Below the pieces are notes generated by a model. The model worked only from the letters and a program-made list of their open reading frames with translations, did not search any database and had not been told where the DNA came from. Below are positions 1 to 24,561 of a stretch of 24,990 nt of DNA, one piece after another. The position numbers were made by a program, and so were the translations under genes. Source of the stretch: a virus (lineage: Duplodnaviria > Caudoviricetes); the IMG/VR virus record IMGVR_UViG_3300048855_000215, positions 1-24,990 of that record. One strand, 5' to 3'. Numbering within the stretch: position 1 is the first letter of the stretch; each line of letters starts with the position of its first letter.

Positions 1-366
1 ATGCTTTACGCTGCCCTCAATACGATCCGTGTTCTGTTTTGCTATGCCGTCATGTTTGCGTTCATGGATCTTGCCTATGGCAAATTCTTTCATTGGTATA
101 TGGCACCATCGTTGGCTTCTGTATGCGTCTTTTCTTTCGTTCCTCTTCCGAGGGTGCGACTTCGGCATCGCTTACCGCTGTTGATCGCTTCTGTAATCGT
201 GGCCAGGTCTCATCAGGCGGCGTGGCGGTGGTACTTCGAGAGCGTTTTCGACTTTCTGTTTTGGTTCGGCCCGCACAATATGGTTTTTCTGCTGGCCTAC
301 GCTTTTCTGGAGGGCGGTCTGCTGAGCATGTTCGCGGCGGTTCGGCCGGCCGGTCGTAAGGGGTAA
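1..366 (+). CDS. Small multi-pass membrane protein (cargo; immunity-like)
   Basis: 121-aa ORF with about four aromatic-rich hydrophobic segments; T-rich codon usage unlike the structural genes. Confidence 0.6.
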   Translation: MLYAALNTIRVLFCYAVMFAFMDLAYGKFFHWYMAPSLASVCVFSFVPLPRVRLRHRLPLLIASVIVARSHQAAWRWYFESVFDFLFWFGPHNMVFLLAYAFLEGGLLSMFAAVRPAGRKG

Positions 367-846
367 CGCTTGTAAGTATTTGCGCGGAAGTGCTTCATCC
401 GCGGCGTCGGAGTGCCGCGCGAATTCGCCCGCATGGGGTGCGTCACTGCTGACCGCCGTAGCAGGTCAATTGCCGCTGAAATGCTGCCGAGAGCATACTT
501 ATCCAGGCGGTCGGCTTCGGCTGACGCGCGTTCGCCCCACATTCGCCTTCCCCATGCTCTTTCTCTAGAATTTTACCTGTGGCGTTGCCGGGACGATGCA
601 GCCGGTGTGCAATTCAAAGACCGAAATCAACCATACCGTGTAGCGGGCTCTTCGCCGGCTGCCAGGGTGGACAGCGCAATAGCCGCTCAAGCCTCTTCGA
701 ATCGATAACGTTCATGTTTTTAGGTCGCCGCCTGCTGATGGGCGAACGCGCGTGTGGCCCCTCGTCCGCCTGCCGGCAGCGCAGGCGGGGCGAAGAGACA
801 CGCAGGCCCCCTCAGCTTCGGGCATTCGACGGGAGCCGGGTTTGAC

Positions 847-1086
847 ATGAAGACAGAAGACAGGATCGCAGCCGCCCGCGTGCTCATCGACATGCCGCTC
901 TTTCACCTGCTGATGGACGAGCTCGAAACCGCGGCCGTCAACGGCTGCGTGAACGCCAAGCACACAGATCACGAGACCCGCGCGGCCTTTGCGGCCGAAG
1001 TGCGGGCAATCCGGAATTTCCGCGGCAAGCTCAAGTTCCTCGCCGAGGGACAAGCCAATGCCGACGGGAAGGAAGCTCCGGCATAG
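847..1086 (+). CDS. Small phage head-module protein (79 aa) of the type found between portal and scaffold
   Basis: ATG at 847 (MKTEDRIAAARVL...), high-GC3 codon usage, immediately upstream of the scaffold gene. Confidence 0.7.
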   Translation: MKTEDRIAAARVLIDMPLFHLLMDELETAAVNGCVNAKHTDHETRAAFAAEVRAIRNFRGKLKFLAEGQANADGKEAPA

Positions 1087-1118
1087 GGCCGGCGCGAAAC
1101 CTTAAAGGCAAGCCAGAC

Positions 1119-2087
1119 ATGACAGACGCAACCACCAACTCGCCGTTTTCCGGCGAGAGTGATAGTGCGCGGCCCTCGCTTTCCCTCGATGACGCTTCAA
1201 GCCTCGAGTTCTCCGAGTCCGGCGGGACCGACGAAGAGGAGGAGAGCGAGCGGCTATTGACGAGCGAGACGGGTGAGACCAGCGAAGATGGTCAAGAGAC
1301 CGGCCAACCCGCAGACCAGGGCGACGAGACACCCAAATCCGAAGAAAAGGGCGAGGAGTCCAACGAAACCCCGGACACCATCATTACCCTGAAAGGTGGC
1401 GAGCAGGTTCCGCTCGAGGAACTGAAGCTGGGGTATTTGCGGGAACGCGACTACCGCCACAAAACTCAGGAGCTCGGCAACAAGGGCCGAAATCTTGAGG
1501 CGATGACAACCCGCGTCGCCGACACGGCGAACGCCATCGCTCAATTCCTGATCGAACAGCTGCCGGAAGAACCGACGCAGGCTCTGGCTATCCAGAACCC
1601 GGCGGAATACGTCCGGAAGAAGGCTATCTACGACGCAGCCCTGACGCATGTGCACCGGCTCGCCGGCATGGGACAGGAGCCTCGCAAGGTCGCCGACGAA
1701 CTCAGCCGGGCCGCCACCGAGGAAACTCTCGCGGCCGAGAATTCAAAGCTGCTCGAAGCCTTTCCGCATCTCGCGAAGGACGAGGCTCGCCAGAAGTTCT
1801 TTGCCGACGCCTTCGCGGCCGGCGAGGACTTCGGCTTCTCCGCCGAGGAGATGCGGCCGGTCACCGATCACCGCTATTTCAAGGTCATGCACTACGCCAT
1901 GCTCGGCCTCCGGGCCGAACAGGCGAAGAACAGGGCGCTGCAGAAGGTGGCGAACGCTCCGCCGGTGACGGCCAGAGCCAGGCCGAACGGACCGGTAAAT
2001 CCGCAAGCACGAAAAAACCGGGAAGCGATGAAGAGGTTGTCGAAAACCGGGTCGATCAAAGACGCAATGGCGATCGACTTCGAATAA
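1119..2087 (+). CDS. Capsid scaffolding protein
   Basis: Very acidic disordered N-terminus, the motif VPLEELKLGYLRERDYRHKTQEL, a helical middle and a KTGSIKDA C-terminus; directly precedes the capsid gene. Confidence 0.8.
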   Translation: MTDATTNSPFSGESDSARPSLSLDDASSLEFSESGGTDEEEESERLLTSETGETSEDGQETGQPADQGDETPKSEEKGEESNETPDTIITLKGGEQVPLEELKLGYLRERDYRHKTQELGNKGRNLEAMTTRVADTANAIAQFLIEQLPEEPTQALAIQNPAEYVRKKAIYDAALTHVHRLAGMGQEPRKVADELSRAATEETLAAENSKLLEAFPHLAKDEARQKFFADAFAAGEDFGFSAEEMRPVTDHRYFKVMHYAMLGLRAEQAKNRALQKVANAPPVTARARPNGPVNPQARKNREAMKRLSKTGSIKDAMAIDFE

Positions 2088-2159
2088 CCATCCCCAAACA
2101 TTTGACGCGTTTGCAGGCCGAAAACGTCCTTGCAAGCGCATTCGAAGGACCAGAAAAAC

Positions 2160-3155
2160 ATGGCTGCTCTCGCCAATACCTTCCTGACCACGGATGCCGT
2201 CGGCAACCGCGAGGAACTCTCGGACGTGGTATCCCGCATCACGCCCGAGGACACCCCGATCTATTCGCTCATCGAAAAGGGCAAGTGCGCTTCGATCCAT
2301 CCCGAATGGGAGACGGACGAGCTTGCCGCTCCGGGGGCGAACATCAAGAGCGAAGGCGACGAATATTCTTTCGGCGCCATCACGCCGCCTGACCGCATGG
2401 GCAACTATACCCAGATCATGCGCAAGGACTGGATCATCTCCGGCACGCAGGAAGTCGTTTCCGAAGCCGGCAACGTGCAGAAACGGAAGTACCAGAAGCT
2501 CAAGAAGGGCGTCGAGATACGCAAGGATGTCGAATATGCGATCGTCGACACCAACGCTTCGGTCGCCGGCGCCACCCGCGAATTCGGCTCGCTCAACACC
2601 TGGACCGAGACCAATGTGTCGCGTGGTGCCGGCGGCGCAAACGGCGGCTTCGACAAGGCCACCGGCCTGACGGTCGCCCCGACCGACGGCACGCAGCGCG
2701 CCTTCAGCAAGGCGATACTGGACGACGTGATGCAGCAGGGCTACCAGAGCGGCGCCAATTTCCGGCACGTCTGCGTATCCCCCTATGTCAAGAGCGTGTT
2801 CGTCACCTTCATGTCGGACGCCAACGTGGCACCGTTCCGCTATGCCGTCTCCAAGGGCGGCGAACGCAACACCATCATCGCGACGGCGGACTACTACGAA
2901 GGCCCGTTCGGCACCGTCATGATCCATCCGAACCGCGTGCAGGCAGCCAATGCGACCACGGCGCGCAACGCCTTCTTCCTCGATACCGACATGCTGGAAT
3001 TCCTCTGGCTGCGGCAGATCCAGGAAGACAAGGACATTGCCCGGACCGGCGACGCCGACAAGGGTGTGATCATCGGCGAAGGCACGCTCAAGGTGAAAAA
3101 CGAAAAGGGCCTCGGCGTCGCGGCCGATCTTTTCGGCTTGAGCGAGGCAAGCTGA
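2160..3155 (+). CDS. Major capsid protein, DUF5309/SU10 type (331 aa)
   Basis: N-terminal NTFLTTDAVGNREELSDVVSRITPEDTP...EWETDEL and C-terminal TGDADKGVIIGEGTLKVKNEKG are typical of this family; GAAGGA RBS before ATG 2160. Confidence 0.9.
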   Translation: MAALANTFLTTDAVGNREELSDVVSRITPEDTPIYSLIEKGKCASIHPEWETDELAAPGANIKSEGDEYSFGAITPPDRMGNYTQIMRKDWIISGTQEVVSEAGNVQKRKYQKLKKGVEIRKDVEYAIVDTNASVAGATREFGSLNTWTETNVSRGAGGANGGFDKATGLTVAPTDGTQRAFSKAILDDVMQQGYQSGANFRHVCVSPYVKSVFVTFMSDANVAPFRYAVSKGGERNTIIATADYYEGPFGTVMIHPNRVQAANATTARNAFFLDTDMLEFLWLRQIQEDKDIARTGDADKGVIIGEGTLKVKNEKGLGVAADLFGLSEAS

Positions 3156-3521
3156 GGGATAGACGGAGTCCCCCCGGCGCGTTTCAGTGCCCCATCGAGG
3201 CATTGAAGCGCGCTTCCGGACGAAAAACCGCTGGACACCTTTCTGGGGATCTCCCTTCAGGGGCAAGGTGCCAGCTTCAGAAGGGATCAGATCAATGGCT
3301 ACCAAAGGTCGGAAACACGGCCGGACACCCTGACGCCTTACAAAGGGAAAAGGCCGAATTTCGCTCCCCACTCTTGCGAGTGTTCCCGAAATGTTCTACA
3401 ACGAGAACGGGTACGGAAGTCAGTATGAAGCTTTTGGTGAGTCTTCCGATGGCCGACCGGATGTCTGGTCCCGAGAGGCGGCTGGGATCTTTATGGGATT
3501 GCTCGCAGGAGAGGAAGGACC

Positions 3522-4105
3522 GTGTTTCGAAGGTATCTCAGCGCAGCGTTCGGTGTAGGCATATCGTTCTTCGCCGCGCCGGCAACGGCCGGCCCAGATG
3601 AGATTGTCGATGCGCTGCTTCGATGCAGACCGGACTTCTTCGAGGTGTTGAAGACCGAAAAATCAGCGTTCGCGCCGGCGCTGATCCGGCATCGTGAAAT
3701 CCCAATCTCCGACATCGTCACGTCCCTGGCAAACATTGCGACGTTCCAGGAGTCGATCCAATCTCGCGGAGTCGACATCCAGGTCTACCTGCAGACGGTT
3801 ATCTCAGGTTCCGGCGATGCCGACCGGCGGACGCATATCTGGGGGGTCTTGGTTCCGGGGAGCCGCAGGAGGTCATCGGTACGCTGGAAGCGAACGTCCC
3901 TGGAGCGAAATTCGAGCCGTCAGCGGATGGCTGGATGCTGAAAGGGGATCAATGGCAGCGACCAGATCCGTGGAGCCTGCTGCTCGTTCGTCGATACCAG
4001 GACAATTTCGGCGCCGGCAGCAGCATCTGGTGTTTTGCCGAAACGGCTGTTCTGGATCCCATGCAGGTCCTGCCCAACATCGAAGAGCTGCTCTGGAAGT
4101 TCTGA
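3522..4105 (+). pseudogene. Secreted/periplasmic protein (about 194 aa if repaired) split by a 1-bp frameshift near 3841-3860
   Basis: GTG start after GAGGAAGG; signal peptide MFRRYLSAAFGVGISFFAAPATA. A second frame continues GEPQEVIGTLEANVPGAKF...LPNIEELLWKF to TGA at 4103-4105. Confidence 0.7.
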
Positions 4106-4659: not shown

Positions 4660-5913
4660 ATGGCCGAACCGACTTCGAAATTTCAGCCGGAAACGCTTGA
4701 CTTCATCGCCCGCAACGCGCGCAAAGCCGATCGTATCGCCAAGGCGCTGGGTCTTGCACCCAACGCCATGATGGGCGCAGTCGCCAACGAATACGATACG
4801 CGCCACAATCCGGAGCTGGGAAGCGGATTTAGTGGAGCAGCCGGGCAATGGTTTGGAGATGGATTATCTCAGTGGAACCCCTGGTATCAGAAAATTGATC
4901 ATGGAAATCTGGAGGAAAGTTATTATGAGGAGAAAACCGAGGAGCGGTCTCCGGACTGGATCGACAGACATGCTCCGAAGAAGATCGCCAGCCTGATCGA
5001 TAAAATTAAAGAGCCGGCCAGTGTTGATGTAGGGCCGGGCAATATCAAGCTTGGGACGGCGGTCGATCTTCTGGAAGCCTATGTCGCTCAACATCCCGAT
5101 GAGGGCGACGATCCGCTGGGCCTCAAGAAATATGTCGGCCGTTACGACCGGCTGAGAGACGATCTTCTCAACTTCGAAGACGCCGACACGACTCTGGCCT
5201 TCGCCGGGTTGATGGTTGGACGAGCGGAGCCTTTCTTCATCGCTAGAGACGAGGCATCCTGGAGCCGGCTGTCACCAGACGAGCGCGACGCGCTTCGGAT
5301 CATGTACTACAAACTAGGACCGGAGACGCTCTCCAACAACATTGCCGAAAGCAAGGTGAACGCCAGAACGAATGGCCAACGGTACGACTTCAATCCCAAT
5401 GGCGATGGCGGCGAGCAGCACCTGAACAATCTCGGGGGGATCGAGAACGCGTTTCAACTCGGCCGTGTGCAGGGCGAGAACGTCATGCCGTACGTGCCGG
5501 AAGACGAACTGGAGAAGGAGCCGTATTTCGACTATGAGCTCGGACTTCCAACGCGTGTCTACCGTAAAGGGACGACAATACTGAACCCGCAATACACATA
5601 TGACCCTTATTCCACTGCCTTGAATGCGCAAGGCAAGCTTCCGCCTTATGCAGGCTTCGATTCGCCGGTGGAGCGTTTGCGGGCAGAGGGAGCGAAGCCT
5701 GAAACGGCAGGGGATGCAAGCGTTCCGAGGCTGTCGGGGGGAACGGCCGTACGGCCACCGCCACAGGATCCTGCCGGCAAGTGGAAGGGGAAGCAGCGAT
5801 TTGAACCGGGTCGGAGAGGCGCAACGGACTTTCCGGATGCGCTGCGGTTCTGGGATGACGCTGTTCGTGGCCGCGCATCGCTGAAGGAAATGTTTGAAGG
5901 CTGGACCGAATGA
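4660..5913 (+). CDS. 417-aa protein with a putative lysozyme-like (SLT/goose-type fold) N-terminal domain and a Pro/Gly-rich C-terminal region; candidate effector
   Basis: GGAG RBS at 4651. IAKALGLAPNAMMGAVANE (helix ending in Glu) and DVGPGNIK resemble lysozyme-superfamily motifs I and II. No signal peptide. Confidence 0.6.
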   Translation: MAEPTSKFQPETLDFIARNARKADRIAKALGLAPNAMMGAVANEYDTRHNPELGSGFSGAAGQWFGDGLSQWNPWYQKIDHGNLEESYYEEKTEERSPDWIDRHAPKKIASLIDKIKEPASVDVGPGNIKLGTAVDLLEAYVAQHPDEGDDPLGLKKYVGRYDRLRDDLLNFEDADTTLAFAGLMVGRAEPFFIARDEASWSRLSPDERDALRIMYYKLGPETLSNNIAESKVNARTNGQRYDFNPNGDGGEQHLNNLGGIENAFQLGRVQGENVMPYVPEDELEKEPYFDYELGLPTRVYRKGTTILNPQYTYDPYSTALNAQGKLPPYAGFDSPVERLRAEGAKPETAGDASVPRLSGGTAVRPPPQDPAGKWKGKQRFEPGRRGATDFPDALRFWDDAVRGRASLKEMFEGWTE

Positions 5914-5959: not shown

Positions 5960-6769
5960 TCAATTGTTCGACGGGAAATCGGGAGGGAGGCTGAACGAAA
6001 ACAGCGGCACGGTGCTCCAGAAGCGCGGCTTGGGCGTGCAGCGCGCCATGTCGGCGGTGAGGTGGTCGGTGGGGACGAAGCGGTACTTCGCGAACGACCA
6101 GTTATGGCTGTAGTCGTTGTCGCCTGGCAACACCAGAACCGCATGGAAGCTATGGACGATGCCGCGATCGTAGCCGGACGCCGCATAAAGCGGGAATCCG
6201 CGCATGTGCGCCACGCTTGTTCGTTCACCTGTCCGTTCGTCCAGAGCGACGCAAAAAGGCTTGCCGTCGGCGATCAGGCTGGAACTTAAAACCACGAGTG
6301 CGGCGACCAGCAGTGACCAGAGTCCGGCGAGGCAGGCCAATCCCAGCGGCACCCAACCGAGGCACAGCCGTGCGTCCTCGGAACCGGCGGAGGAGACGAG
6401 GAAGACGGAGGATGCCAGTCCAAGCGTCAACGTCATACCGTGCGCCCAAGGAAGGAACAGCGATGGTGAACCGGACAGCGCGCCAATCACGAGCGTAAGG
6501 AGCGCGCCGGGCAGGACGATCAGTGGATAGAGAATCCATGCGAGACGCCAATGTAAGCGAATGCCGCCCAAGACATGGGTAGCGGCCAGAACAAAAGGCA
6601 GGACCGGCAAAACGAGCAAAAAGGCGAAAACGGTCGTTAAAAACCACGCTTCGCTGTTGGAATAATCCAGTTCCAGTATGATGGCGGCGAACAGGACGGC
6701 GTCCGGATGGAATAGTCCCACGGCAATAGCCCCGGTGGCGGCTAGTAAAAGAATGTTCCTGCGTTCCAC
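5960..6769 (-). CDS. Integral membrane protein (about 6 TM) with a soluble C-terminal domain; candidate immunity protein
   Basis: GTG start with GAGG RBS. About 165 hydrophobic residues, then a Cys-containing soluble domain (KPFCV...FHAVL...NWSF). Convergent with 4660-5913. Confidence 0.7.
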   Translation of the reverse strand: MERRNILLLAATGAIAVGLFHPDAVLFAAIILELDYSNSEAWFLTTVFAFLLVLPVLPFVLAATHVLGGIRLHWRLAWILYPLIVLPGALLTLVIGALSGSPSLFLPWAHGMTLTLGLASSVFLVSSAGSEDARLCLGWVPLGLACLAGLWSLLVAALVVLSSSLIADGKPFCVALDERTGERTSVAHMRGFPLYAASGYDRGIVHSFHAVLVLPGDNDYSHNWSFAKYRFVPTDHLTADMARCTPKPRFWSTVPLFSFSLPPDFPSNN

Positions 6770-6870
6770 TGGTGCCTCGAGCTACGGCGAATCATCGCGT
6801 TCAGGTTGATTCCTATCTCATTTATCGGAAAAATTGTGACGGCCCGGGCGAATTCGAAAGAAACTCATCT

Positions 6871-7172
6871 CGTTCCTGGCGGACATTGCGACGTTCCGGG
6901 GTCGATCAATCTCGCGGAGTACACATTCAGGTCCGCCTGCAGACGGTTATCTCCGGCTCCGGCGATACCGAGCGGCGGACGCGTATCCGGGGGGTATCGG
7001 TGCGGGGGCGAGCCGCAGGAGCTCATCAAGACGCTGAAAGCAAACGTCCCGGAAGCGAAATTCGTGCCGTCCGCAGATGGCCGGATGCTGAAGGGGATCC
7101 GGTGCTTTTGCCGAAACGGGTGTTCCAATCCAAGTGCTGCCCGATATCGAAGAGCTGCTCTGGACGTTTTGA
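6871..7172 (+). pseudogene. Second, more decayed copy of the secreted-protein gene (matches 3721-4105)
   Basis: Long DNA similarity (e.g. CCTGCAGACGGTTATCTC, GCGAAATTCG, GAAGAGCTGCTCTGGA). Lacks the 5' end, carries frameshifts and has lost about 3951-4027. Confidence 0.85.
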
Positions 7173-7237: not shown

Positions 7238-7251
7238 CAGGAAAGATGAAC

Positions 7252-7428
7252 ATGGCAGAAGCCACAGAGAAGACCACGCCGGTCAAGCTGCTTTACGACG
7301 TCTGGGCGGCCGGCGACGGACGCGTGCCGAGAGGAACGGTCCTCGACCTGCCGGTGAAGGCGGCAAAGACCCTCATCCGGCAGGGGAAGGCCGAGCGCGC
7401 CGACCCGCTGCCCGGAGACGCCGAATGA
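7252..7428 (+). CDS. Small phage protein (58 aa), post-capsid
   Basis: AGGAAAG RBS, MAEATEKTTPVKLLYDVW..., stop overlaps the next ATG (ATGA). Confidence 0.75.
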   Translation: MAEATEKTTPVKLLYDVWAAGDGRVPRGTVLDLPVKAAKTLIRQGKAERADPLPGDAE

Positions 7429-7748
7429 TCGTGCGCGATGGTTCGTGGTCCCTCTACGATTACGACCGCAAGAGCGGGCGCTCCGTCTGGCACTATTTCG
7501 ACGGGGAGAAAGACGTTTTCCGCGTCGACTATCCCGTCGACAATCTCCTGAGCGAAAATGCCGAGATCCGCAACGGCGCGGAGCGCGCCTGGAAGGGGGA
7601 CTGGCACCGCGTCGCCTCGATCCCGCTGAACATCGCCTACGGTTCCGGCCTCGTGCAGGCCCACTCGGAAGGCGACGACCGTTCCGTGAAGCGGTTCCTC
7701 AACAACTCCGACAACCGCGCGTGGCGGACGAAGGAAGGCCACCTATGA
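7425..7748 (+). CDS. Conserved phage protein (107 aa) of DUF5309-capsid phages
   Basis: WHRVASIP and FLNNSDNRAWRT motifs; ATGA overlaps on both sides. Confidence 0.75.
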   Translation: MIVRDGSWSLYDYDRKSGRSVWHYFDGEKDVFRVDYPVDNLLSENAEIRNGAERAWKGDWHRVASIPLNIAYGSGLVQAHSEGDDRSVKRFLNNSDNRAWRTKEGHL

Positions 7749-8344
7749 CCATTTCGGACTATGCGTCCCTCCTGGTGGATGCCGGCGAATATGCCGGCCG
7801 CGAGGACATCGCGCACAACTTCCCGCGCTTTCTCGGCCTGGCGGAGCTGAAGCTCAACCGCGGGCTTCGCGTCGCCGACATGGAAGTGACCGATGAAATC
7901 GCGCTGATCGACGGGGAGGGCACGCTACCGGCCGATCTCCTCGAAGCGCGCGAGGTCAGGAACGCTTCGGGAATTCCGATTCGCGCCGTATCGCTGCAGC
8001 AGCTGACGAACAGCTACGTGGACCGCAGCGGCACGCTGGCGGGCTACGCCATCGTCGGCAGCACGATCAAGGTCCGCCCGGTCTCCGACAATGAGCTGAC
8101 GGTCACCTATTACGCCCGCATCCCGGCGCTCACCCCGTCGAATCCGACGAACTGGCTGCTGGAGAAGGCGGCCGACGTGTACCTCTATGCCCTGGTGACA
8201 GAAATCGCGATCTGGGAGCGCGATGCCGCCAAGGCACAGGCGGGTCAGCAGCTTTTGGCTCTCGCGCTTTCCGGGCTCACTGTCGAAGACGAGCGTACCC
8301 GCTGGGGCAATGCGAAGATGGTCGTTGGAGGGGTGACGCCATGA
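7745..8344 (+). CDS. Head-tail adaptor-like protein (199 aa)
   Basis: MTISDYASL...FLGLAELKLNRGLRV, TLPADLLE and TNWLLEKAADVYLY motifs of podovirus adaptor-type proteins; ATG 7745 overlaps the previous stop. Confidence 0.7.
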   Translation: MTISDYASLLVDAGEYAGREDIAHNFPRFLGLAELKLNRGLRVADMEVTDEIALIDGEGTLPADLLEAREVRNASGIPIRAVSLQQLTNSYVDRSGTLAGYAIVGSTIKVRPVSDNELTVTYYARIPALTPSNPTNWLLEKAADVYLYALVTEIAIWERDAAKAQAGQQLLALALSGLTVEDERTRWGNAKMVVGGVTP

Positions 8345-10278: not shown

Positions 10279-10860
10279 TCAGTTGAATCGGATAATATGT
10301 TTGACCGTCGGGTGGCGCCTGACTTGGTCACGGATAAGAAAGGCAATGTCCGGCCCCACCGTCTTGATATAGTTCGGATCGAGCAAATAAGCGCAGATCG
10401 AAATGGCCGCATATTCCCGGCGGATGGCGTCGCCTTGATATCCGTGGTTCTCGGGGCCGACCCAGTGTTCTTCCGGTATGGGCACGCCGCTCTGCTCCTG
10501 CCGGACCCTGCGCGGATCGTCCGGGGGAGTGTACATATCGTTGTAAATACGGCGCGCTTGCATCAAGGCTGCCCCGGCCCGCGGTATTCCACCGACCTTC
10601 CGGTCGATCATGTGTCCGATTTCAAGGCAGAGAGCGAGCTTGTCTTGCGGCGACATCCCGTCCACGACGCGCTCGATTTCGCGATCGGGGGCGGACTCAT
10701 CCACCGCCTCGCGATCTTCGGTCGATGCCGGCGACGATTTCGCGTTCGGCGCGGCCTCCGGCTTCCGGGGGGCAACCCATTTCAAAACGGCGTCGAGAGA
10801 CGACCGGAGGAAGGTATGCCCGGCACCCGCCGGTTTCGCCTGCGACTCTTCGTTCGACAT
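10279..10860 (-). CDS. Inverted paralog of the metallopeptidase domain with a broken zinc motif (LEIGH, EYAAI); 193 aa (209 aa if started at 10908)
   Basis: Last 93 aa align without gaps to the 604-aa protein (about 45 identities by hand count); GGAG 7 nt before ATG 10860. Confidence 0.75.
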   Translation of the reverse strand: MSNEESQAKPAGAGHTFLRSSLDAVLKWVAPRKPEAAPNAKSSPASTEDREAVDESAPDREIERVVDGMSPQDKLALCLEIGHMIDRKVGGIPRAGAALMQARRIYNDMYTPPDDPRRVRQEQSGVPIPEEHWVGPENHGYQGDAIRREYAAISICAYLLDPNYIKTVGPDIAFLIRDQVRRHPTVKHIIRFN

Positions 10861-14334: not shown

Positions 14335-14777
14335 GCCTGATCTGGGGCGGGGCATCGAACCCCGCCGTCAATCAGGCCATAGCCCGGTTCGTCGCAAGCC
14401 GCATTCCCGGCTGCGACCGCGGCTTCGAGCATTTCACGACACTGGGAATGATCGAAGGCGAGCACCTCGTCGCCGGCATCGTCTTCCACAACTACACGCC
14501 CGAGGCCGGGGTCATAGAGCTTTCGTCCGCTTCGACCAGCAAGCGCTGGCTGACGCGCCCGATGCTCAAAGCGATGTTCGGCTACCCCTTCGATCAGATC
14601 GGCTGCCAATTGGTCGTTCTCAGGGTCTCCGAGCGCAACACCGCAATGATCGAAATAGCCGAGCGTTTCGGCTTCAAGGCCTGCCGCATCCCGCGCCTCA
14701 GGGGCCGGGAGGAAGCGGAAATCATTTTTACGTTCACAGATGACGACTGGCGCAGCCACGCCGTCAACAGAAGGTAG
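14331..14777 (+). CDS. GNAT-fold phage assembly protein (148 aa)
   Basis: TTG start after GGGGAGG; LVAGIVFHNY, MFGYPFDQIGC and N...ERFGF GNAT motifs; usual slot between nozzle and pilot proteins. Confidence 0.75.
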   Translation: MSLIWGGASNPAVNQAIARFVASRIPGCDRGFEHFTTLGMIEGEHLVAGIVFHNYTPEAGVIELSSASTSKRWLTRPMLKAMFGYPFDQIGCQLVVLRVSERNTAMIEIAERFGFKACRIPRLRGREEAEIIFTFTDDDWRSHAVNRR

Positions 14778-16648: not shown

Positions 16649-17943
16649 TGGCTCCATCCTTCATCTTCGGTGGGAATACGGGCGAGACGCCCCAATCCGT
16701 CAAGCGCAAGCGGGATCTCGCCATGGCGATCATGGGTGCTTCTGCTGCGCCCAGGAACGTCGGCGAAGGCCTCAATGCGCTCGGCTCCGGGATTGTCGCG
16801 GGCATCATGAACCGGCGCGCCGACAAGGCCGAAAAGAGTGGCAGGGCCGGTGCCGACAGTGTGTTCCAAGGCATCGTGAACAGGATTACCGGTCAAGCGC
16901 CGGATGCGGACGGGTCACGCATGGTTTCGACCGGGGCAGGACCGGCGAGCACTGGCCCTGTATCTTCGCAGTCTTCCGCTTATCGAGATGCAATCGCCTC
17001 GATCGAGAGTGCAGGCAGCGGCGGCTACAAAGCGGTTGGCCCGACGCATCCGAAAATGGGCCGCGCGCTCGGCCGATACCAGATCATGGAGGCAAATGTC
17101 GGCCCATGGTCTCGCGAAGTGCTCGGCCGCGAAGTGTCGCCGGACGAGTTCATGGCCGACGCGCGGATTCAGGACGCCATTTTCGACGGCAAATTCAACA
17201 GCTATGTGCAGCAGTTCGGTCCAGAGGGCGCGGCTCAGGCGTGGTTCGCGGGCCCCGGCGGGGTCGGCAAGACAGACCGGAAGGATACGCTCGGAACCGA
17301 CACAGGCACCTATGGACGCAAGTTCATGCGGGCCCTTGGATCACAGGGACAGCCGCAGAAAGCCGCCGGCCGCGATCCCTCGATCGGGATGCCGCATCAA
17401 ACCGCCGCGGGCGCGGTCAACGCCATGAGTGCGGGGATAAGCAGCCCTTCAGCGTCGCTTTCGGAAGAGGTCGCCGCCTTCGAGCAGACGCCTGAGTACC
17501 GGGCCCAATTCCCCGGCATGAACGTGCCGCAGGGCATCCCCGCGCAGTTCCAAGGCTCCCGGAAGCTCGCCAATGCGCAGGGCGGCGTCATGCCGGCGCT
17601 CATGGGCGGCGCCCCGGCCTCGCCCGAGCAGATCGCAGAGGCGCAGGCGATCGGGCAGCAGCAGGCGCCGCAAGCCCCGACCCGGATGGAGCTACTTCAA
17701 GCCCTCGGCAATCCGTTCCTCAGCGAAGAGCAGCGCGCGATTCTGCAGACACTCTATCAGCAGCAGGTGCAGCAGTCCGATCCGGTGCGACTGATGGAGC
17801 TTGAAAGAGGACGCCTTGAAATCGATGCCATGCGAAACGGCGACTGGTCAAAACTCGATGACGGCAGACTCTACAATCAGCGTACGGGAGAAGTGAGGGA
17901 CACCCGAACCAAACCGAACGCGTGCCTCCCGACCTTGCCCTGA
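16648..17943 (+). CDS. Internal virion/ejection protein with a lysozyme-like (transglycosylase) domain, apparently C-terminally truncated
   Basis: AIASIES...ALGRYQIM...QDAIF...AAQAWFAG motifs; the sequence turns atypical just after DDGRLYNQRTGEV. Confidence 0.75.
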   Translation: MAPSFIFGGNTGETPQSVKRKRDLAMAIMGASAAPRNVGEGLNALGSGIVAGIMNRRADKAEKSGRAGADSVFQGIVNRITGQAPDADGSRMVSTGAGPASTGPVSSQSSAYRDAIASIESAGSGGYKAVGPTHPKMGRALGRYQIMEANVGPWSREVLGREVSPDEFMADARIQDAIFDGKFNSYVQQFGPEGAAQAWFAGPGGVGKTDRKDTLGTDTGTYGRKFMRALGSQGQPQKAAGRDPSIGMPHQTAAGAVNAMSAGISSPSASLSEEVAAFEQTPEYRAQFPGMNVPQGIPAQFQGSRKLANAQGGVMPALMGGAPASPEQIAEAQAIGQQQAPQAPTRMELLQALGNPFLSEEQRAILQTLYQQQVQQSDPVRLMELERGRLEIDAMRNGDWSKLDDGRLYNQRTGEVRDTRTKPNACLPTLP

Positions 17944-18128: not shown

Positions 18129-18141
18129 CATGGAGGTTACG

Positions 18142-19938
18142 ATGCCACGCACAGGCGGAGTCTATTCACCACCTGCCGGCACGAAAGGTGTGTCCAATAC
18201 GACCATTCAGAGCGTGCCCTACAATGCGCTTGTGGATGACCTCAGCGCCGACGCCAATGCCGCGCGGCCGGTCACGGCAGGAGGGACGGGGGCGACCTCG
18301 GCAAGCGCAGCCCGGACCAATCTCGGATTGGCGATCGGTACGAACGTGCAGGCCTACGACGCCGGCCTGCAATCGATTGCCACGCTCGCGACTGCCGCCG
18401 ACAGGATGATCTACACAACGGCAGCCGATGCCTATGCCACGACGGCGCTGACGCCGTTCGCGCGCACGATCCTCGGCGACGCAGACGCAGCGGCGGCGCT
18501 GACGACCCTGGGTGTGTCCGCTTTCGCCAAAGCGCTCCTGGACGACACGGATGCGGCTACCGCCCGGACGACGCTCGGAGTGGCAATCGGAGCGGACGTG
18601 CAGGCCTACGACGCCGGTTTGCAGTCGATCTCCGGGCTTACGACCGCCGCAGACAGGACGATCTACACGACCGCATCGGATGTCTATGCGACCACGGCAC
18701 TGACGCCATTTGCGCGAACGATCCTCGACGACACCAGCGCCGCTGCCGTGAAGACCACGCTCGGCCTTGCGGCAGTGGCGTCGTCCGGATCGGCCTCGGA
18801 TCTCAGCTCGGGAACGATTTCCGACGCACGGCTTCCGGGCTCGATGGCGGGCAAGAATTTCTCGTCCGGCGTAAGCTTCGCCAATGCGGTTGCTGCCGGG
18901 AATACCGACCTGTCGAAGCATATCCAGCTCTACAGCGGTTACGGATTCACGATCACGGGTTCGACCCTGAACTATACGGTCCCGGCCAACTCCTCTCATG
19001 TGTGGAACGTCAACGGAACGGAAGTCGGCCGCCTCAATTCCTCGGGCCTGACGCTGGCAACACCGCTTGCGCTCGTCGAAGGAGGTACGGGCTCGACGGA
19101 CGCCGCGACGGCGAGATCCAATCTCGGTGCGAACAGCGCTTCCAATCTCACGACCGGAACCGTTCCGAACGCCAGAATTTCCGGAGCCTATGACGGCATC
19201 ACGACGCTCGGCCAGACCGGCACCCATACGATCACCACCCCCGGCGAGGCGATACGTATTGTTGGCCCCGCCTCCACCGACGATCCGTATGTGAGCTTCT
19301 ATAAGGGGGCCACTCGCCAAGCTTATATCCAGCACACCGACGGCACGGGGGTAAATCAAGGGTTTCGCATTTATAACGATACGGCGACCGGCGGCGACAC
19401 GGCCCTCACACTGAAGAATTCCGGCGGCGTCGACAGCCTGGAATTCCAGGTCAACGGCGCCGAGCACGTCGTCTATCACTCCGGAAATCTATCCTCGGCC
19501 GACCTTAACTCGATCTATGGCTACACGCCGGCGTCAAACGCGGTCAGTACCACTGCCGGCAACGGCTTGACCGGCGGCGGCACGCTTGCGGCAAGCCGGA
19601 CCCTGACGCTCGGTACGCCTTCGAACATCACGAACTCGACCACCAACTCGGTCACTGCGACCAGCCACACGCACGCGCTGGGATTTACAGCGGCGGAGGT
19701 TTACACGGGTTCGACGCAGGACGAAACCAACCTGCCGATCGGGCACGTCATCGCCGCCTATATCAACGGGTGGAACAATCGCAATCAATCGACGACGCTT
19801 CGCCTTCACTCACAGCCAATGAGCTACTGTACTGACTCATTCAGTTCCGCCGGTGCCGCTTTAGCCGGCACTTGGCGCGCGAGGGGGGTGGTGTCTACTG
19901 ACGGCAGTGGAATTCAACTCTGGCAAAGGACGGCTTAA
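18142..19938 (+). CDS. Tail fibre protein (598 aa)
   Basis: GGAGG RBS; MPRTGGVYSPPAG anchor; GGTGA...AARTNLG motifs; duplicated VQAYDAGLQSI unit; GTWRARG...WQRTA tip. Confidence 0.85.
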   Translation: MPRTGGVYSPPAGTKGVSNTTIQSVPYNALVDDLSADANAARPVTAGGTGATSASAARTNLGLAIGTNVQAYDAGLQSIATLATAADRMIYTTAADAYATTALTPFARTILGDADAAAALTTLGVSAFAKALLDDTDAATARTTLGVAIGADVQAYDAGLQSISGLTTAADRTIYTTASDVYATTALTPFARTILDDTSAAAVKTTLGLAAVASSGSASDLSSGTISDARLPGSMAGKNFSSGVSFANAVAAGNTDLSKHIQLYSGYGFTITGSTLNYTVPANSSHVWNVNGTEVGRLNSSGLTLATPLALVEGGTGSTDAATARSNLGANSASNLTTGTVPNARISGAYDGITTLGQTGTHTITTPGEAIRIVGPASTDDPYVSFYKGATRQAYIQHTDGTGVNQGFRIYNDTATGGDTALTLKNSGGVDSLEFQVNGAEHVVYHSGNLSSADLNSIYGYTPASNAVSTTAGNGLTGGGTLAASRTLTLGTPSNITNSTTNSVTATSHTHALGFTAAEVYTGSTQDETNLPIGHVIAAYINGWNNRNQSTTLRLHSQPMSYCTDSFSSAGAALAGTWRARGVVSTDGSGIQLWQRTA

Positions 19939-19940
19939 CA

Positions 19941-20261
19941 ATGCGCCTGAACGAAGTATATGCCGCGCACGCGACCCGTGAGCCGGGTGTTTTCATTATT
20001 CAATGCAACATCACGGACGCAGCGGGAGAGACGTATGATGCCGTGTCGGTTGTGCGTCCGAACGACCCGCACGGCCTTAATCCTATTCTCAGGAAGTGGA
20101 TGGAGGACAATCCCGGTTTCACGGTCGGCCCTTATCCGCCGCCGATTGCCGACAAAACGCGAGCGGCAATGCCGCCTCTGCCAGCGCGCCAATTGAGACT
20201 TGGCCTCTTTGGCGACGCACACCATGAGATATCCGAAAATGCGCGGAGAACCGGCGTCTAG
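19941..20261 (+). CDS. Tail-fibre-associated (assembly/chaperone-like) protein, possibly truncated
   Basis: Immediately follows the fibre gene; RPNDPHGL and MPPLPARQLRLGL motifs; ends soon after the second motif. Confidence 0.6.
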   Translation: MRLNEVYAAHATREPGVFIIQCNITDAAGETYDAVSVVRPNDPHGLNPILRKWMEDNPGFTVGPYPPPIADKTRAAMPPLPARQLRLGLFGDAHHEISENARRTGV

Positions 20262-20872: not shown

Positions 20873-20917
20873 GTCGTTGCGTGGTGAAGCGCACCGGCAG
20901 AGGCGTAAGCTCCTCAA

Positions 20918-21973
20918 TTAGACGCTTGCGCCCCAGTTTCGCGAGGGCGCTAGTCGTGCGTCATCCGGATCAAATTCAATCGTTGGCATAAACCCAAGAT
21001 CAATAAGTTGCTCAGGATTGACGAAACGAATTGAGGCTTCGTCGACGAAATCGATGGCGCCTGCCTTGTCTATTTCACTCTTCATCGCTTGATAATGCTG
21101 TGAGCCGTTATAATGTTGTTTATCGGAGACGGCCTCAGCAATCTTTTCTCTGTAGTTGGTGAAGAACTTGAAATGCAACAGAACACCCCAAATGGGCGAA
21201 AAATTGCGATTATAAGGAAGTGGACGATGAATGCTGCTTCCGAACCGGCAATCTTTATCCCAATATACGAGGGGATACTTGATTAGCTCATTGTCCTCGC
21301 TGAACAGGCGCTTCCTTGGGCCGCCCTTTACGCTTATGCCTCGCTTTTGAAGCGTGACTTCATAGCCGCTGCTATCGATGTGATCCACGACGTGCCACGG
21401 CATGTTGCCGTCTCTGCTTTTTGCTTCACTAGATGGATAAAAATCGACCATGGGAGCCGGCAACCGTTTGATATTATGCTCCTCGAGCACATTTATCAAA
21501 GCCTTTAGCGGTTCGCGCAGGCACTGGTCATAGACCAGGAACTCGTCCGAATCGAGATTTAGATACCAGCGATTATAGCCGTATCGCTCAAACAGGGCTT
21601 CGCGCCAACGGCGCCCTCGCCGCGCCGCCTCAAAGCGAATTGGGGAAGTCCAGACATCAACGTCCGGTTGGCCCATCAGATACTCACGCGTCCCATCAGT
21701 CGATACGTCATCAAGGCAAATAAATCGGGTTACGCCAAGTCTCCGGTAATGACTCAGGAATGCCGGAATGAGGGCGATCTCGTTGTGTGTGACGAATACC
21801 AACGGAAGATCGCTTGCGCCCAGCGCAGGCGCATCCTTTGCCGGTATAATAGTCACCTTTTCAACTTTTCTGCGCTCTCTGGCGGTAACCCTCCAATTGT
21901 CATAGAACGTTAATAGACGATCAACGAAGGTGCGGTGCGGGAACGAAAAATCGCGGTCAAATGGATATTTCAT
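20918..21973 (-). CDS. Glycosyltransferase family 2 (Glyco_tranf_2_4-like)
   Basis: HNE...FLSHYRRLGV...DDVSTDGT, DSDEF (DxD) and LLHFKF motifs. Confidence 0.9.
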   Translation of the reverse strand: MKYPFDRDFSFPHRTFVDRLLTFYDNWRVTARERRKVEKVTIIPAKDAPALGASDLPLVFVTHNEIALIPAFLSHYRRLGVTRFICLDDVSTDGTREYLMGQPDVDVWTSPIRFEAARRGRRWREALFERYGYNRWYLNLDSDEFLVYDQCLREPLKALINVLEEHNIKRLPAPMVDFYPSSEAKSRDGNMPWHVVDHIDSSGYEVTLQKRGISVKGGPRKRLFSEDNELIKYPLVYWDKDCRFGSSIHRPLPYNRNFSPIWGVLLHFKFFTNYREKIAEAVSDKQHYNGSQHYQAMKSEIDKAGAIDFVDEASIRFVNPEQLIDLGFMPTIEFDPDDARLAPSRNWGASV

Positions 21974-22852
21974 TTAAAAAATCCAGAGAAGTTTATATTT
22001 AGTCTTTCGCCGCGCATCGTTCCAACACATTCTGAAGAACTTAATCCGTATCGTCAGGCCGACAGGAGGAAGTTTTCTTGTAAGGCCGTAGCATCCTAGA
22101 GTATATTTTAGCCGCTGATCAAGCCTGTCGCGAAAGCTTTTCGCTCCATATCTCTGCTCAGAGCCAGATCCCTCCGTGAAGTCGAATGTTGGTCCGTCGA
22201 CGTACACTACGAGGTCGCGGACGACAAGTTCTGAAACGACGTATGATGCGAAACACCAAGGATTTCCAAGTTCGAACCAGCGTTCCATGAGCATTTCTTT
22301 TGCGCTGGCTCTGTACAGACCGTAGATCCACTCAGCCGGGAACGTTAGATTTCTTGGAACCTTGCCTGATGCGTATTTACTTGTGAATTCGAAGACAGAG
22401 TCGTCCGGGGCTTTGATTCTGGACCCGCTTCGCCCTACCAGCTTCGTCGAGCATGCGGCAAGAAGCTTTCCGGGCTTTTCGTCAAGTGCTTCAACCAAGC
22501 GCGCGAGAAAATCCGGCGACGAATGGTCATCGCATGCACGCAGGCAAAAATATTCGCCACGTTCGGCGCCGAGCCGGACTGCTCTCGCGAAGTTATCGAT
22601 CGCGCTTACATGTTCTGCGCATTTGACGACGGAGAAGCGTTCATCCGACCGGCAAAATTGCTCGGCTATGTCGACCGTCTTATCCGTCGATTTATTGTCG
22701 AGAATGATTGCTTCGAAGCCATCGAACGTCTGTTCGGCAATGCACCGTAGACTGCTGGTGAGTGTCTTTTCGCCATTATAGACGGGGAAAACGACGACAA
22801 CCTTCGGCTTGGGCACTGATTTTATCTCTACCGTTGAATCAGTCTTGCACAT
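21974..22852 (-). CDS. Glycosyltransferase family 2
   Basis: PVYNGEKTL...DNKSTDKT...NF...ACDD motifs; ATG at 22852; stop abuts the next start. Confidence 0.9.
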   Translation of the reverse strand: MCKTDSTVEIKSVPKPKVVVVFPVYNGEKTLTSSLRCIAEQTFDGFEAIILDNKSTDKTVDIAEQFCRSDERFSVVKCAEHVSAIDNFARAVRLGAERGEYFCLRACDDHSSPDFLARLVEALDEKPGKLLAACSTKLVGRSGSRIKAPDDSVFEFTSKYASGKVPRNLTFPAEWIYGLYRASAKEMLMERWFELGNPWCFASYVVSELVVRDLVVYVDGPTFDFTEGSGSEQRYGAKSFRDRLDQRLKYTLGCYGLTRKLPPVGLTIRIKFFRMCWNDARRKTKYKLLWIF

Positions 22853-22945
22853 ATCCAATGGCGCGACGATCCGCAACGGGCGTCCATGGCGAGAGCGCCA
22901 GGCGCTTCTTCGGCGGCAGCAAGCTCGCAACGGACGAAGGCCGGT

Positions 22946-22997
22946 TGAGGAGATCAAGCAAGCCGCTGCGGGTATCCCGAATCTCAACAGGCCTTAG
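22946..22997 (+). repeat. 52-bp direct repeat of 20821-20872 (second MITE-like right end)
   Basis: 44/52 identical by hand alignment; its last 19 bp match the reverse complement of 20450-20468 at 18/19. Confidence 0.85.
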
Positions 22998-23045
22998 TCC
23001 GCCTTTTTTCGCCGACGAACTGCAATTTCAGCAGAAAGGAAACCC

Positions 23046-23858
23046 ATGACCAAAACCGTGCCTCCGGGCGCGGCGATGCTGCTCGACTTTATCCGGGAGG
23101 CGGAAGTCGGCAGCAAAGGCCGCGCGTCTTACGACGTGATCTACGGACATAACCAGGGGAAGCTCACAAAGCCGCTTACGCAGATGGCGATCGCCGAGGT
23201 GATCCGTGCGCAGAAGGGGTGGGCGAGGGCGCATGGATCGAGTGCGGCGGGGGGCTATCAGTTCATGCGGGCCACGCTTTCCGGGCTTTTGCAGGAAGTA
23301 CCGGGATTGGGCGGAGATCAGCGCTTCGATCCTGCGCTTCAGGACCGACTCGCCCTTCACCTTCTGAACCGCCGTGGTTTCGCCGGCTTTATCTCCGGCG
23401 AGATCGGCCCCGTTGAATTCGCGAGGCGCCTGGCGATGGAATGGGCGTCTCTGCCGGTTCTCGCCGATAGCCAGGGTGACCGGCAGCGGATAAGGCGCGG
23501 GCAGTCCTATTATGCCGGCGACGGGCTCAACCGAGCGCTGGTGCGGCCGGAAAAGCTGGAAGCCGTGCTTCGCGCAGTGCTGGCAGCCGGTCCACGAGAG
23601 GTCGAGGCGGACCGCGCGGGCGAGGCGGCGGCGCTTGTGGTTCCGGCACGCCCGCGCAAGCCGGTTTCCCGGTCCGGCCGCTTCTGGACCTGGTTGCTGA
23701 CGGCCGGCGGCACGATCGTCACGGCGCTGAAGGAGCTGAACCTCGTCGCGCTGGATTGGCGGGTGCAGCTTGCGATCCTCGTCATAATCGTCAGCTTTGC
23801 CGTTTACGCGATCTGGTCGATGCCGGCGGTCCGCGACGCTTTGAGGCTCACACGATGA
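23046..23858 (+). CDS. Endolysin (lambda-R-like muramidase/transglycosylase) with C-terminal hydrophobic segments
   Basis: LLDFIREAE, YDVIYG, SSAAGGYQF, FDPALQD and EWASLP motifs; AAGGA RBS. Confidence 0.85.
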   Translation: MTKTVPPGAAMLLDFIREAEVGSKGRASYDVIYGHNQGKLTKPLTQMAIAEVIRAQKGWARAHGSSAAGGYQFMRATLSGLLQEVPGLGGDQRFDPALQDRLALHLLNRRGFAGFISGEIGPVEFARRLAMEWASLPVLADSQGDRQRIRRGQSYYAGDGLNRALVRPEKLEAVLRAVLAAGPREVEADRAGEAAALVVPARPRKPVSRSGRFWTWLLTAGGTIVTALKELNLVALDWRVQLAILVIIVSFAVYAIWSMPAVRDALRLTR

Positions 23859-24100
23859 CGTTTCCGTGGAGCAACCTGGTCGTCGCTGCCTTGATCCTGG
23901 CCGGAATTTCCTGGGCCATACTCGAAATCCGTTCGAATGCCGCGCAGGCGGTCCGCAATTCAATCGAAAGGCAGAACAATGAAGCAGCAAAGAGCGCTGA
24001 CGCGAAGCGCTTTGACTATGGCGTCTGTTCTTCTTCTGGCGGGCTGTGGAACTTCGGGACCGGCCGATGTGAGCGGCCTTCGCAGCATCGTGGGAACTGA
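23855..24100 (+). CDS. Rz-like inner-membrane spanin (81 aa)
   Basis: N-terminal TM, helical periplasmic region, two C-terminal Cys; ATGA overlap with the endolysin gene. Confidence 0.7.
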   Translation: MTFPWSNLVVAALILAGISWAILEIRSNAAQAVRNSIERQNNEAAKSADAKRFDYGVCSSSGGLWNFGTGRCERPSQHRGN

Positions 24101-24230
24101 ACTTACCGGCGCCCGCGGCGCGACGCAGATCGACCAGCGCAAGATCGACCGCACGGTGGTCGGCCTCTGCGCGGCATCCGTCTGGACCAGGGCGGAGTGT
24201 GCGAGACACGGGGAGGGCGGAGATGATTGA
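23979..24230 (+). CDS. Rz1-like outer-membrane lipoprotein spanin
   Basis: Lipobox LLLAG-C in a shifted frame overlapping the Rz-like gene; start could be 23979 or 24018. Confidence 0.7.
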   Translation: MKQQRALTRSALTMASVLLLAGCGTSGPADVSGLRSIVGTELTGARGATQIDQRKIDRTVVGLCAASVWTRAECARHGEGGDD

Positions 24231-24561
24231 GGCCGCCGTTCACCAGCAGCTCGGCACCTTGGTCGCCGAGGTGAAGAACCTGCGGGAGGACCTGCGCCGA
24301 TCGGAGGACAGGTCGGATGCCGGCCGCGTATCCATGACGCGCCGGATGGACGAGTTGGTCGAGCGCATGCGGACTCTCGAGGGCTCGATGATGCTCGTCA
24401 AGGACGATATTGCCGCGATGAAACCGGTGACCGAGGACGTGCGCAAATGGAAGCTGATGGGGATGGGCGCTCTCGGCGTTATCGGGATCGGCGGGGCGGC
24501 GCTCGGCGTGACCTTTGCCGATGTGACAAAACGCGTGCTGTTGCTCACGAAGGCAGGGTAG
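24223..24561 (+). CDS. DUF1515-like coiled-coil protein with C-terminal TM (putative holin/lysis accessory)
   Basis: VHQQLGTL...EDLRRSED...MKPVTEDVRKWKLMGMGALG pattern; position in the lysis cassette. Confidence 0.7.
   Translation: MIEAAVHQQLGTLVAEVKNLREDLRRSEDRSDAGRVSMTRRMDELVERMRTLEGSMMLVKDDIAAMKPVTEDVRKWKLMGMGALGVIGIGGAALGVTFADVTKRVLLLTKAG

Follow-up and report, generated by a model that had tools for sequence, protein, structure and literature searches.

Tailocins, extracellular contractile injection systems (eCIS, PVC) and type VI secretion systems (T6SS) are phage-derived or phage-like weapons with contractile or headless long tails, and their cargo is loaded inside the tube or onto the spike. 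In contact-dependent inhibition (CDI) and Rhs systems, orphan modules are preceded by a partial copy of the upstream conserved sequence. Here we analyze a locus of Sinorhizobium and Ensifer that resembles these systems in part. It is represented by the IMG/VR record IMGVR_UViG_3300048855_000215, a single record of 24,990 bases filed as viral; the whole stretch is called the window below. Judging from gene content and order, the window is the head-tail-lysis part of a podovirus cluster of the SU10/Pa223 type. The structural backbone is interrupted at several positions (slots) by cassettes consisting of enzyme-like genes (cargo) and small partner genes, and several cargo families end in a short peptide (tag) that resembles the C-terminus of the scaffolding protein. 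We judge it rather probable that this is a domesticated podovirus cluster building a short-tailed, enzyme-loaded competition particle.

The likeness to tailocins, eCIS and T6SS would lie in lysis-coupled release, targeting by a fibre, and periplasmic muramidase- or transpeptidase-like effectors with cognate immunity. Unlike those systems, the locus keeps a head, a portal and a short tail: family scans of the locus gave no match to a sheath or baseplate, and found capsid, scaffold, portal and short-tail genes instead. It has the genetic layout of a polymorphic toxin system, that is, variable effectors, cognate partner genes and orphan cassettes; unlike in CDI and Rhs, what is duplicated is the 3' part of a structural gene, and this gene ends before the cargo. 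MuF toxins, for which loading into a capsid-like structure has been proposed, likewise comprise variable toxin-like genes with a downstream partner in the terminase-portal-capsid module (accessible text of PMC5576092 and PMC3482391), and an enzyme gene followed by a small partner gene within the head module is found here too. However, no MuF family match was obtained in the window or in the slot proteins, in agreement with an earlier first-pass annotation of the window, which had supposed that no MuF domain was involved. In addition, the cargo here is stand-alone with a short tag rather than fused to a carrier, the capsid-slot cargo appears wall-directed and its partners secreted, and the locus is fixed and passed on vertically, whereas muf genes mostly reside in prophages, according to the same text.

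Gene transfer agents (GTAs; RcGTA, BaGTA and Dd1) are likewise domesticated phage genes without an integrase, and their small terminase (TerS) lacks an N-terminal segment (available part of PMC11841831), as the Sinorhizobium copies, but not the Ensifer copies, appear to do in the alignment described below. The locus, known from its genes, differs from GTAs in its SU10-type podovirus parts, its lost ejection proteins and its enzyme-partner arrays. The tag has a parallel in the C-terminal helix-and-hook of the 80alpha scaffold and of the SaPI1 protein CpmB, both of which bind the capsid N-arm (available part of PMC5644958); there, as is predicted here, a second protein reuses the site of the scaffold. 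CpmB redirects capsid size for a satellite, whereas here several unrelated enzyme families are tagged, once N-terminally. Finally, the temperate Rhizobium phage RHph_Y25 and the Pa223/SU10 podoviruses have the same gene order and capsid family, but slots are missing from Y25, which possesses an integrase, an early region and three ejection proteins. By the features that define them, the locus is not a MuF system, a tailocin or a mobile prophage.

Family scans of the window identified a podovirus backbone on the plus strand, which consists of scaffold, SU10-type capsid, two adaptors, an S74 ejection-type protein, a second ejection protein, tail fibre, endolysin and DUF1515. The gene order is that of RHph_Y25, the capsids are 86% identical, and the closest solved relative of the capsid is that of Pa223 (9ny2, E 4e-33). 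The head-tail genes are 82-90% identical to those of free prophages, the window shares, over its right part, 97% identity with Sinorhizobium sp. C101 and 91% with S. meliloti Ak57, and the related locus L049 equals the window over 13 kb apart from one base. The backbone was called intact at first pass; it is present but incomplete: of the ejection proteins, the second is shortened and the third missing, and the chaperone of the fibre has 106 residues instead of about 160.

Related loci fall into two classes, compact prophages and insert-bearing loci that adjoin a flank with a lipoprotein gene and an SLC13 permease gene. We read 33 regions of Sinorhizobium and Ensifer at the latter site (31 genomes, C101 and Ak57; G002 and G334 in part only), and all 33 have the same layout beside the SLC13 permease gene, so the comparison of chromosomal position that the first-pass annotation had proposed yields a fixed site. 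The annotation had also seen the lysis genes run into a probable host gene; this is the lipoprotein gene of the conserved flank (24706..24990, minus strand), and SLC13 comes next. Of 32 Sinorhizobium genomes, 30 contain DUF1515 (28 of them at most 17 kb from SLC13) and 22 a full capsid gene; 18 of these capsid genes are within 30 kb of SLC13, three on other contigs and one 260 kb away. Capsid matches occur in 17 of 23 Ensifer genomes: 12 are full-length and at most 35 kb from SLC13, one is fragmented at the SLC13 site, two are on other contigs and two elsewhere. Across 300 genomes of the family, 16 have a capsid match.

At its left end, the locus contains a CI-like repressor, a gene with a DnaA C-terminal helix-turn-helix (HTH) domain, a 205-aa gene, small and large terminase (TerL) and portal. 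Scans for regulators, in which a GafYZ-like regulator was considered, turned up only the DnaA C-terminal HTH and the CI-like repressor. Replication-initiator-like genes are kept at the left end in Ensifer. Such phage-type genes were noted at L138:11875-13102; at the left end of G318 they are fragmented, and the remaining Sinorhizobium regions extending this far lack them. No tyrosine integrase (PF00589) was found at the locus in any of five genomes (serine recombinases were not searched for); the free prophage copies in G005 and G339 have a PF00589 match 12-14 kb away. An integrase or replication module just upstream with sporadic occurrence was named at first pass as contrary to domestication; the integrase was not seen within this scope, and the distribution is that of a site fixed across the two genera rather than a sporadic one.

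These results bear on whether the window is an ordinary mobile prophage carrying morons at a hotspot, as its filing as viral and the 82-90% identity to free prophages might suggest. We consider this extremely improbable, in view of the fixed site, the lack of a tyrosine integrase in the five genomes searched and gene distances that track the host. Furthermore, run X5 contains a contig of 48.7 kb that shows 60 differences from window positions 1-12500 (99.5% identity), and a contig of the same length and depth continues into the SLC13 flank; nearly identical DNA runs into the host flank at one depth.

In trees calculated with FastTree, for which no formal clade or topology test was made, the fixed loci group together and their clusters largely repeat the SLC13 tree. 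Distances of locus genes correlate with SLC13 distances (Mantel rho 0.72-0.92, p 0.002). The dN/dS comparison proposed at first pass for the backbone indicates purifying selection, with medians of 0.08-0.29 and a dS similar to that of SLC13; capsid, portal and hub have values of 0.03-0.14 across species, sister pairs included. Cargo genes have 0.13-0.26 and the peptidase 0.53, from few pairs. By these measures, descent is vertical and parallel to the host gene tree, and purifying selection acts on the cluster. There is one exception: capsid and hub of the window, G001 and G002 nest among free prophages, and TerL of G001 stays with the fixed loci. Since capsid and hub group with free prophages but TerL with fixed loci, the two exchange DNA, which suggests that head-tail genes in the meliloti/medicae group have been replaced repeatedly by recombination.

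The inserts of the window, located at first pass before 847 and at 3156-7200, 8341-12122 and 20262-23000, are indeed absent from Y25 and from the free prophage copies. We clustered 306 called slot genes from 40 loci that have inserts or the fixed-site layout. The contents of the slots differ between species, whereas invariant contents would have spoken against the first-pass proposal of variable cassettes. In the capsid slot, an enzyme-like gene is paired with a member of one secreted family, C0; the enzyme families found there are Phage_lysozyme2 (E 3e-20), YkuD/Tlde1 (E 5e-8/1e-7), an endolysin-like lysozyme (E 1e-21), a weakly DUF6973-like family and that of a 417-aa protein of the window. 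In the portal slot, a His/Asp/Cys family occurs together with a membrane partner and another family together with DUF6258; DUF6973 proteins are found there as well. The adaptor 1 slot contains HExxH...E proteins. An NCBIfam search of the cargo returned nothing, the window cargo had no match in 50,697 phage records, and sequence searches found no solved relative of the peptidase and papain-like families.

Two cargo proteins of the window are whole, the 417-aa muramidase-like protein and a 604-aa peptidase-like protein. The former (4660..5913, plus strand) has no signal peptide, a conserved Glu43 and a C-terminal tag at 5839-5910; in the alignment of its family, the ANE motif is kept in all 16 full-length rows of 18. 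Its structural model is closest to Tse3 (Z 11.2 with 179 residues aligned at rmsd 3.3) and to MltE (Z 10.1), and lysozyme folds occupy the top rows of the structural search, while Foldseek gave no match at E<0.001. The modelled fold agrees with the lysozyme-like label given at first pass, and the protein is likely a muramidase. Upstream of it, a 5' remnant of a lysozyme-like cargo gene (3295..3352, plus) has about 690 bp deleted relative to G001.

The 604-aa protein in the adaptor slot (8341..10155, plus) has an internal-virion-protein-like N-terminal part (phrog_5880, E 3e-17; phrog_342, E 9e-4) and a C-terminal HExxH...E zinc-peptidase-like domain, with HETGH at 410 and a downstream YAAE glutamate. 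These motifs are consistent with the Zn-peptidase-like assignment made earlier; its homologs have weak Pfam metallopeptidase matches only. The decayed or dead paralogs reported at first pass are motif-broken copies of this gene: an inverted, likely decayed paralog of the peptidase domain (10279..10908, minus), in which LEIGH and YAAI replace HETGH and YAAE, and an orphan paralog (11394..12122, plus) with an interrupted motif and the third ligand helix deleted. The orphan overlaps a duplicated cassette leader (11019..11461, plus) that consists of copies of the partner 3' end, a terminator hairpin, the adaptor 3' end and the cargo start. Just upstream of the window lies a portal-slot cargo of 211 aa with invariant His/Asp/Cys, from its sequence likely a permuted papain-like enzyme; in L049, the order is portal 3' end, DUF6973 cargo and partner, and then this 211-aa cargo, which adjoins the window start. 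By comparison with L049, the small membrane protein at 1..366 (plus) is its partner.

Partial 3' copies precede further cassettes: of capsid in 4, of portal in 6 and of adaptor in 1 of the regions read. The duplicated 3' end can serve recombination only, since it belongs to a structural gene that stops before the cargo starts. The capsid gene, for example, ends before its cargo with no consistent readthrough frame. Fusion of capsid and cargo by readthrough or frameshift was considered and rejected, because the frames open across the capsid stop fall in all three without a pattern.

Other observations concern the portal slot. In ten loci (L009:3572-4723 and others), it contains an M20 peptidase and a small secreted cysteine-rich gene with no obvious tie to the cassettes. 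A few prophage-like loci (L042:6703-7725, L046:7653-8636 and L108) have cargo of the peptidase family directly after the portal, possibly the ancestral state of the slots.

Scaffolds end in S[IM][KR]DA[ML]xxDF[ED], and the scaffolding protein of the window (1119..2087, plus; phrog_3927, E 1e-79) has this tail at 2052-2084. In at least six cargo families that are unrelated to one another, the C-terminus is a scaffold-like motif, either register-matched or one residue shorter, and FWxxLFPGR often stands before it. A matrix trained on scaffold tails alone and run on 1628 C-termini placed cargo at ranks 1-3, 5-7, 9 and 10. When the matrix was slid over 2426 proteins, the top six matches were cargo. 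They include a copy of the motif at the N-terminal end of the Phage_lysozyme2 family, in which 9 of 13 long members have it near this end. A profile trained on cargo, which is circular for its own training families, matched 26 of 29,916 stop-anchored tails in the fixed loci; these matches come from 15 loci and always lie on the operon strand. In 49 prophage loci, it matched 1 of 20,969 tails, weakly. A weak 33-position tag profile searched over 1.84 billion representatives gave 6 matches, all C-terminal, the named members of which are from Sinorhizobium or Ensifer. That a terminal peptide similar to the scaffold C-terminus recurs in unrelated families of cargo, as far as motifs and profiles tell, is a new observation.

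To model the complex, we used two capsid copies and residues 380-417 of the window cargo, in three runs and with three controls. The docking scores were 0.68, 0.00 and 0.68, and the best of the 3 controls scored 0.00; 116 of 157 solved pairs attain the mark for docking, as do 2 of 215 mismatched ones, and these figures apply only approximately to this job. Contacts agreed between runs by at least 12%, and the partner pLDDT was at least 31. In the model, Leu408, Met411 and Phe412 of the cargo contact residues 26-30 and 110-118 of the capsid, many of which are invariant. The major capsid protein (2160..3155, plus; SU10 family, PF17236, Pfam E 1e-82) has predicted tag-binding residues at 16-37 and 110-118, and residues 1-33 form the N-arm in the Pa223 capsid (available text of 10.1101/2025.06.11.659172). 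The tag of the window is accordingly placed, as a prediction, on the capsid N-arm and backbone helix.

Loading through a scaffold-like tag on stand-alone cargo is more likely than loading through fusion to ejection proteins. A profile of ejection proteins found no adaptor-slot cargo, which leaves an N-terminal signal common to both unsupported. Adaptor- and portal-slot cargo have only short N-terminal motifs in common and no conserved N-terminal trafficking domain. In these two slots, cargo of different families (L049:3214-3846, L052:5444-6106 and L023:4123-4704) shares LELRDF and SPxRAAATP, which are absent from structural proteins and possibly constitute a second address signal. A glycine-zipper-like protein (L026:6077-6835, L127:5754-6500, P0112) has both an N-terminal ELQEF-type motif and a C-terminal tag, and is a possible membrane-active cargo.

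The partner genes are candidates for immunity. A hydrophobic N-terminus is predicted in 35 of 57 partners versus 1 of 38 enzymes, and in the five largest of the partner subfamilies with an upstream enzyme, the same enzyme family stands upstream in 30 of 31 cases, counted over related loci that are not independent. In the window, the gene at 3522..4105 (plus) encodes a signal-peptide partner of the locus-specific C0 family, likely a periplasmic immunity protein by its sequence. In this record only, it is split at 3856, where a G run has a one-base gap; the gene is whole in L049 and in contigs of runs X4 and X5, and the difference may be an assembly error. (Another one-base difference from the X4 and X5 contigs is at 10675.) A decayed second C0 copy follows at 6865..7172 (plus; 84% nucleotide identity to 3715-3950). 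Between them, a membrane protein convergent on the cargo (5960..6769, minus; about 4 predicted transmembrane segments) is a candidate partner, and a gene of this type recurs in the same slot of G002 and L051.

A search for C0 found 105 domain matches, spread over 26 of 55 genomes and without exception located at most about 9 kb downstream of the capsid gene at the fixed site; order-wide, 1 of 401 genomes had a match. The secreted partners would protect kin, likely as cognate periplasmic immunity. The folds of the cargo, which match the effector classes Tse3 and Tlde1, raise another explanation, namely that the slots are a mere landing pad for T6SS-type effector-immunity pairs exported by another system. 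We hold this to be very unlikely: a sheath match was found in 1 of the 26 cassette-bearing genomes and in none of the other 25 (the apparent exclusion is not significant, Fisher p 0.10), the C0 family occurs nowhere else in the 55 genomes, and the tag docks on the capsid in the model.

In T7 and T4, packaged internal proteins are ejected through the portal. The three ejection genes of Pa223 are assigned to an outer-membrane channel, a periplasmic tunnel and an inner-membrane complex (available text of 10.1101/2025.06.11.659172). In the window, the first ejection-type protein (14783..16648, plus; S74 domain, PF13884, phrog_6121, 4287) is likely the outer-membrane component by Pa223 gene order. 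The second (16648..17943, plus) is truncated, with 431 aa versus 622-766 aa in most prophages, and the third gene is missing. Among the 21 complete loci, that is, those in which capsid and hub are present, the third protein is absent from all 21 and the second from 19, and the second is truncated in the other 2, as in the window. By gene order, it is the periplasmic-tunnel and inner-membrane proteins that are lost or cut, which fits delivery into the periplasm, since wall enzymes act and secreted partners would protect there.

The mechanism that we propose, for which we see about an even chance, is a further class of phage-derived secretion system, in which a domesticated podovirus swapped DNA injection for protein delivery, with loading of exchangeable antibacterial enzymes by a scaffold-mimicking tag, release into the periplasm, and renewal of cassettes and head-tail genes. 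Induction would be controlled by the CI-like repressor and downstream regulators. A short-tailed particle would then be built, into whose head stand-alone wall enzymes would enter through the scaffold-like tag at the inner capsid site. The lysis cassette would free the particles and the tail fibre would pick target cells, where the first ejection protein would open the outer membrane and the cargo would leave via portal and tail into the periplasm of a rival. Secreted partners, and perhaps the glycan slot described below, would shield kin. Cassettes would be swapped by homologous recombination at the duplicated 3' ends of the carrier genes, and head-tail genes would be renewed from free temperate relatives. 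In outline, a domesticated podovirus- or GTA-like particle with variable effectors was already suggested at first pass, and the fixed site, the missing tyrosine integrase and the variable slots support it.

Several findings weigh against an enzyme-loaded competition particle. Two cassettes of the window record are decayed, and its own cargo family is weakly scaffold-like (ranks 73-834 of 1628). The cargo-trained profile reaches scaffolds only at E 2.6 or worse, one of the three docking runs scored 0.00, and portal- and adaptor-slot cargo is mostly without a scaffold-like tag. The fold of the C0 partner, in a confident model (pLDDT 83), has no known immunity match (best Z 5.2). The ATPase and nuclease motifs of TerL are intact in 25 of 25 fixed loci, and the basic N-terminus of TerS is lost, as in GTAs, in 22 Sinorhizobium copies according to the alignment. 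The capsid slot is empty in 7 of the 21 complete loci, yet these have dN/dS of 0.07-0.24; since empty-slot loci are still constrained, capsid-slot cargo cannot be the sole reason why the particle is kept. Finally, the head-tail middle is lost in 11 of the 33 regions, with differing breakpoints, and some tagged proteins have no recognisable enzyme domain.

The intact TerL motifs, the shortened Sinorhizobium TerS and the constrained empty-slot loci, together with the lack of a PF00589 integrase in the five genomes and the replication-initiator-like genes kept in Ensifer, would suit a GTA-like carrier whose particles package host DNA, with the slot genes as passengers or as aids in crossing the recipient wall. 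Against such a carrier, the two large ejection proteins are lost or cut, it leaves the cognate secreted partners, orphan arrays and locus-confined tags unexplained, and 8 Ensifer TerS copies retain the basic N-terminal segment in the alignment. We therefore rate it as unlikely, while keeping it in view; in the competition particle, packaged DNA could be transferred or could merely drive maturation and ejection.

The losses in the head-tail middle, set against a lysis end retained in all 33 regions (the G334 region is too short to judge its head-tail genes), suit a module for lysis or against phages whose head-tail part is a relic in slow decay. Selection would then keep the regulator, terminase and lysis ends, and the tagged proteins would work within the producing cell, where they might jam the capsids of related temperate phages as SaPI CpmB does. 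The short, domain-less form of some tagged proteins, the resemblance of the tags to a scaffold tail common to free relatives, and the nesting of meliloti/medicae head-tail genes with free prophages while TerL stays with fixed loci can be read in the same way. However, capsid, portal and hub are strongly constrained across species (0.03-0.14, as above), and jamming of capsids in the cytoplasm gives no sense to wall-cutting domains and secreted partners. We consider this explanation improbable, and return to the competition particle as our reading.

The remaining backbone genes of the window, all on the plus strand, are a small conserved head-module gene (847..1086; phrog_12935, E 5e-33); two small head-completion genes and the SU10 adaptor 1, the latter at 7745-8344 (7249..8344; phrog_8441, 3982, 2941; PF24175); and adaptor 2, a 538-aa tail hub or nozzle protein and a GNAT-like gene (12119..14777). 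The hub role is assigned from position; the protein (12718-14334) carries the PHROG label 'amidase' and has no solved homolog by sequence search. The tail fibre and its truncated chaperone lie at 18142..20261. Downstream, the lysis cassette (23046..24561; phrog_90, 23603, 19660, 5211; PF07439) consists of an endolysin, two overlapping spanin-like genes and DUF1515, for which the layout makes spanin and holin-like (DUF1515) roles likely.

The slot between fibre and lysis genes (20262-23000) had been counted among the enzyme and partner cargo, an assignment that does not hold: it contains two low-GC GT2 glycosyltransferases (20918..22987, minus; PF13704, PF00535), and in the other loci scanned it mostly has glycosyl-, methyl- and pyruvyl-transferases and sugar-pathway genes. 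Variable surface-glycan genes thus adjoin a variable tail fibre, possibly for receptor masking or self-protection. An intergenic repeat at 20450-20900 and 22946-22997 has many copies on Sinorhizobium replicons. As to the surroundings of the locus, a RelE/HigA toxin-antitoxin pair lies at the Ak57 deletion junction (L001:15415-16011), and CP090106.1, NZ_CP104135.1, NZ_CP104127.1 and NZ_CP104131.1 are 'plasmid' records of 3.5-3.7 Mb that are chromosome-like. Packaging, which might show as an excess of locus DNA, found no support in four metagenome assemblies, where locus depth is equal to or below that of the host flank; these assemblies are not shown to be particle preparations. RNA contigs over the locus cover 9/30 and 4/30 bins, too sparse to inform on expression.

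A description of the locus was not found in the full-text literature, judged mostly from listings, with subscription journals and supplements outside this coverage; it is not described in the accessible text of PMC5537653 and PMC5498481, and prophage tables in Sinorhizobium papers may list it. Since a locus of this kind can readily pass for a defective prophage, others like it may lie unnoticed elsewhere. If our reading is true, the capsid-based route of toxin delivery proposed in 2012 (PMC3482391, as far as its accessible text goes) becomes testable in culturable, genetically tractable soil bacteria, with a candidate loading signal and a predicted binding site named, and a tag of about 24 residues would be at hand for loading proteins into podovirus capsids. 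The particle could also account for strain competition in two genera in which most of the searched genomes are without a T6SS, which would bear on the persistence of legume inoculants.

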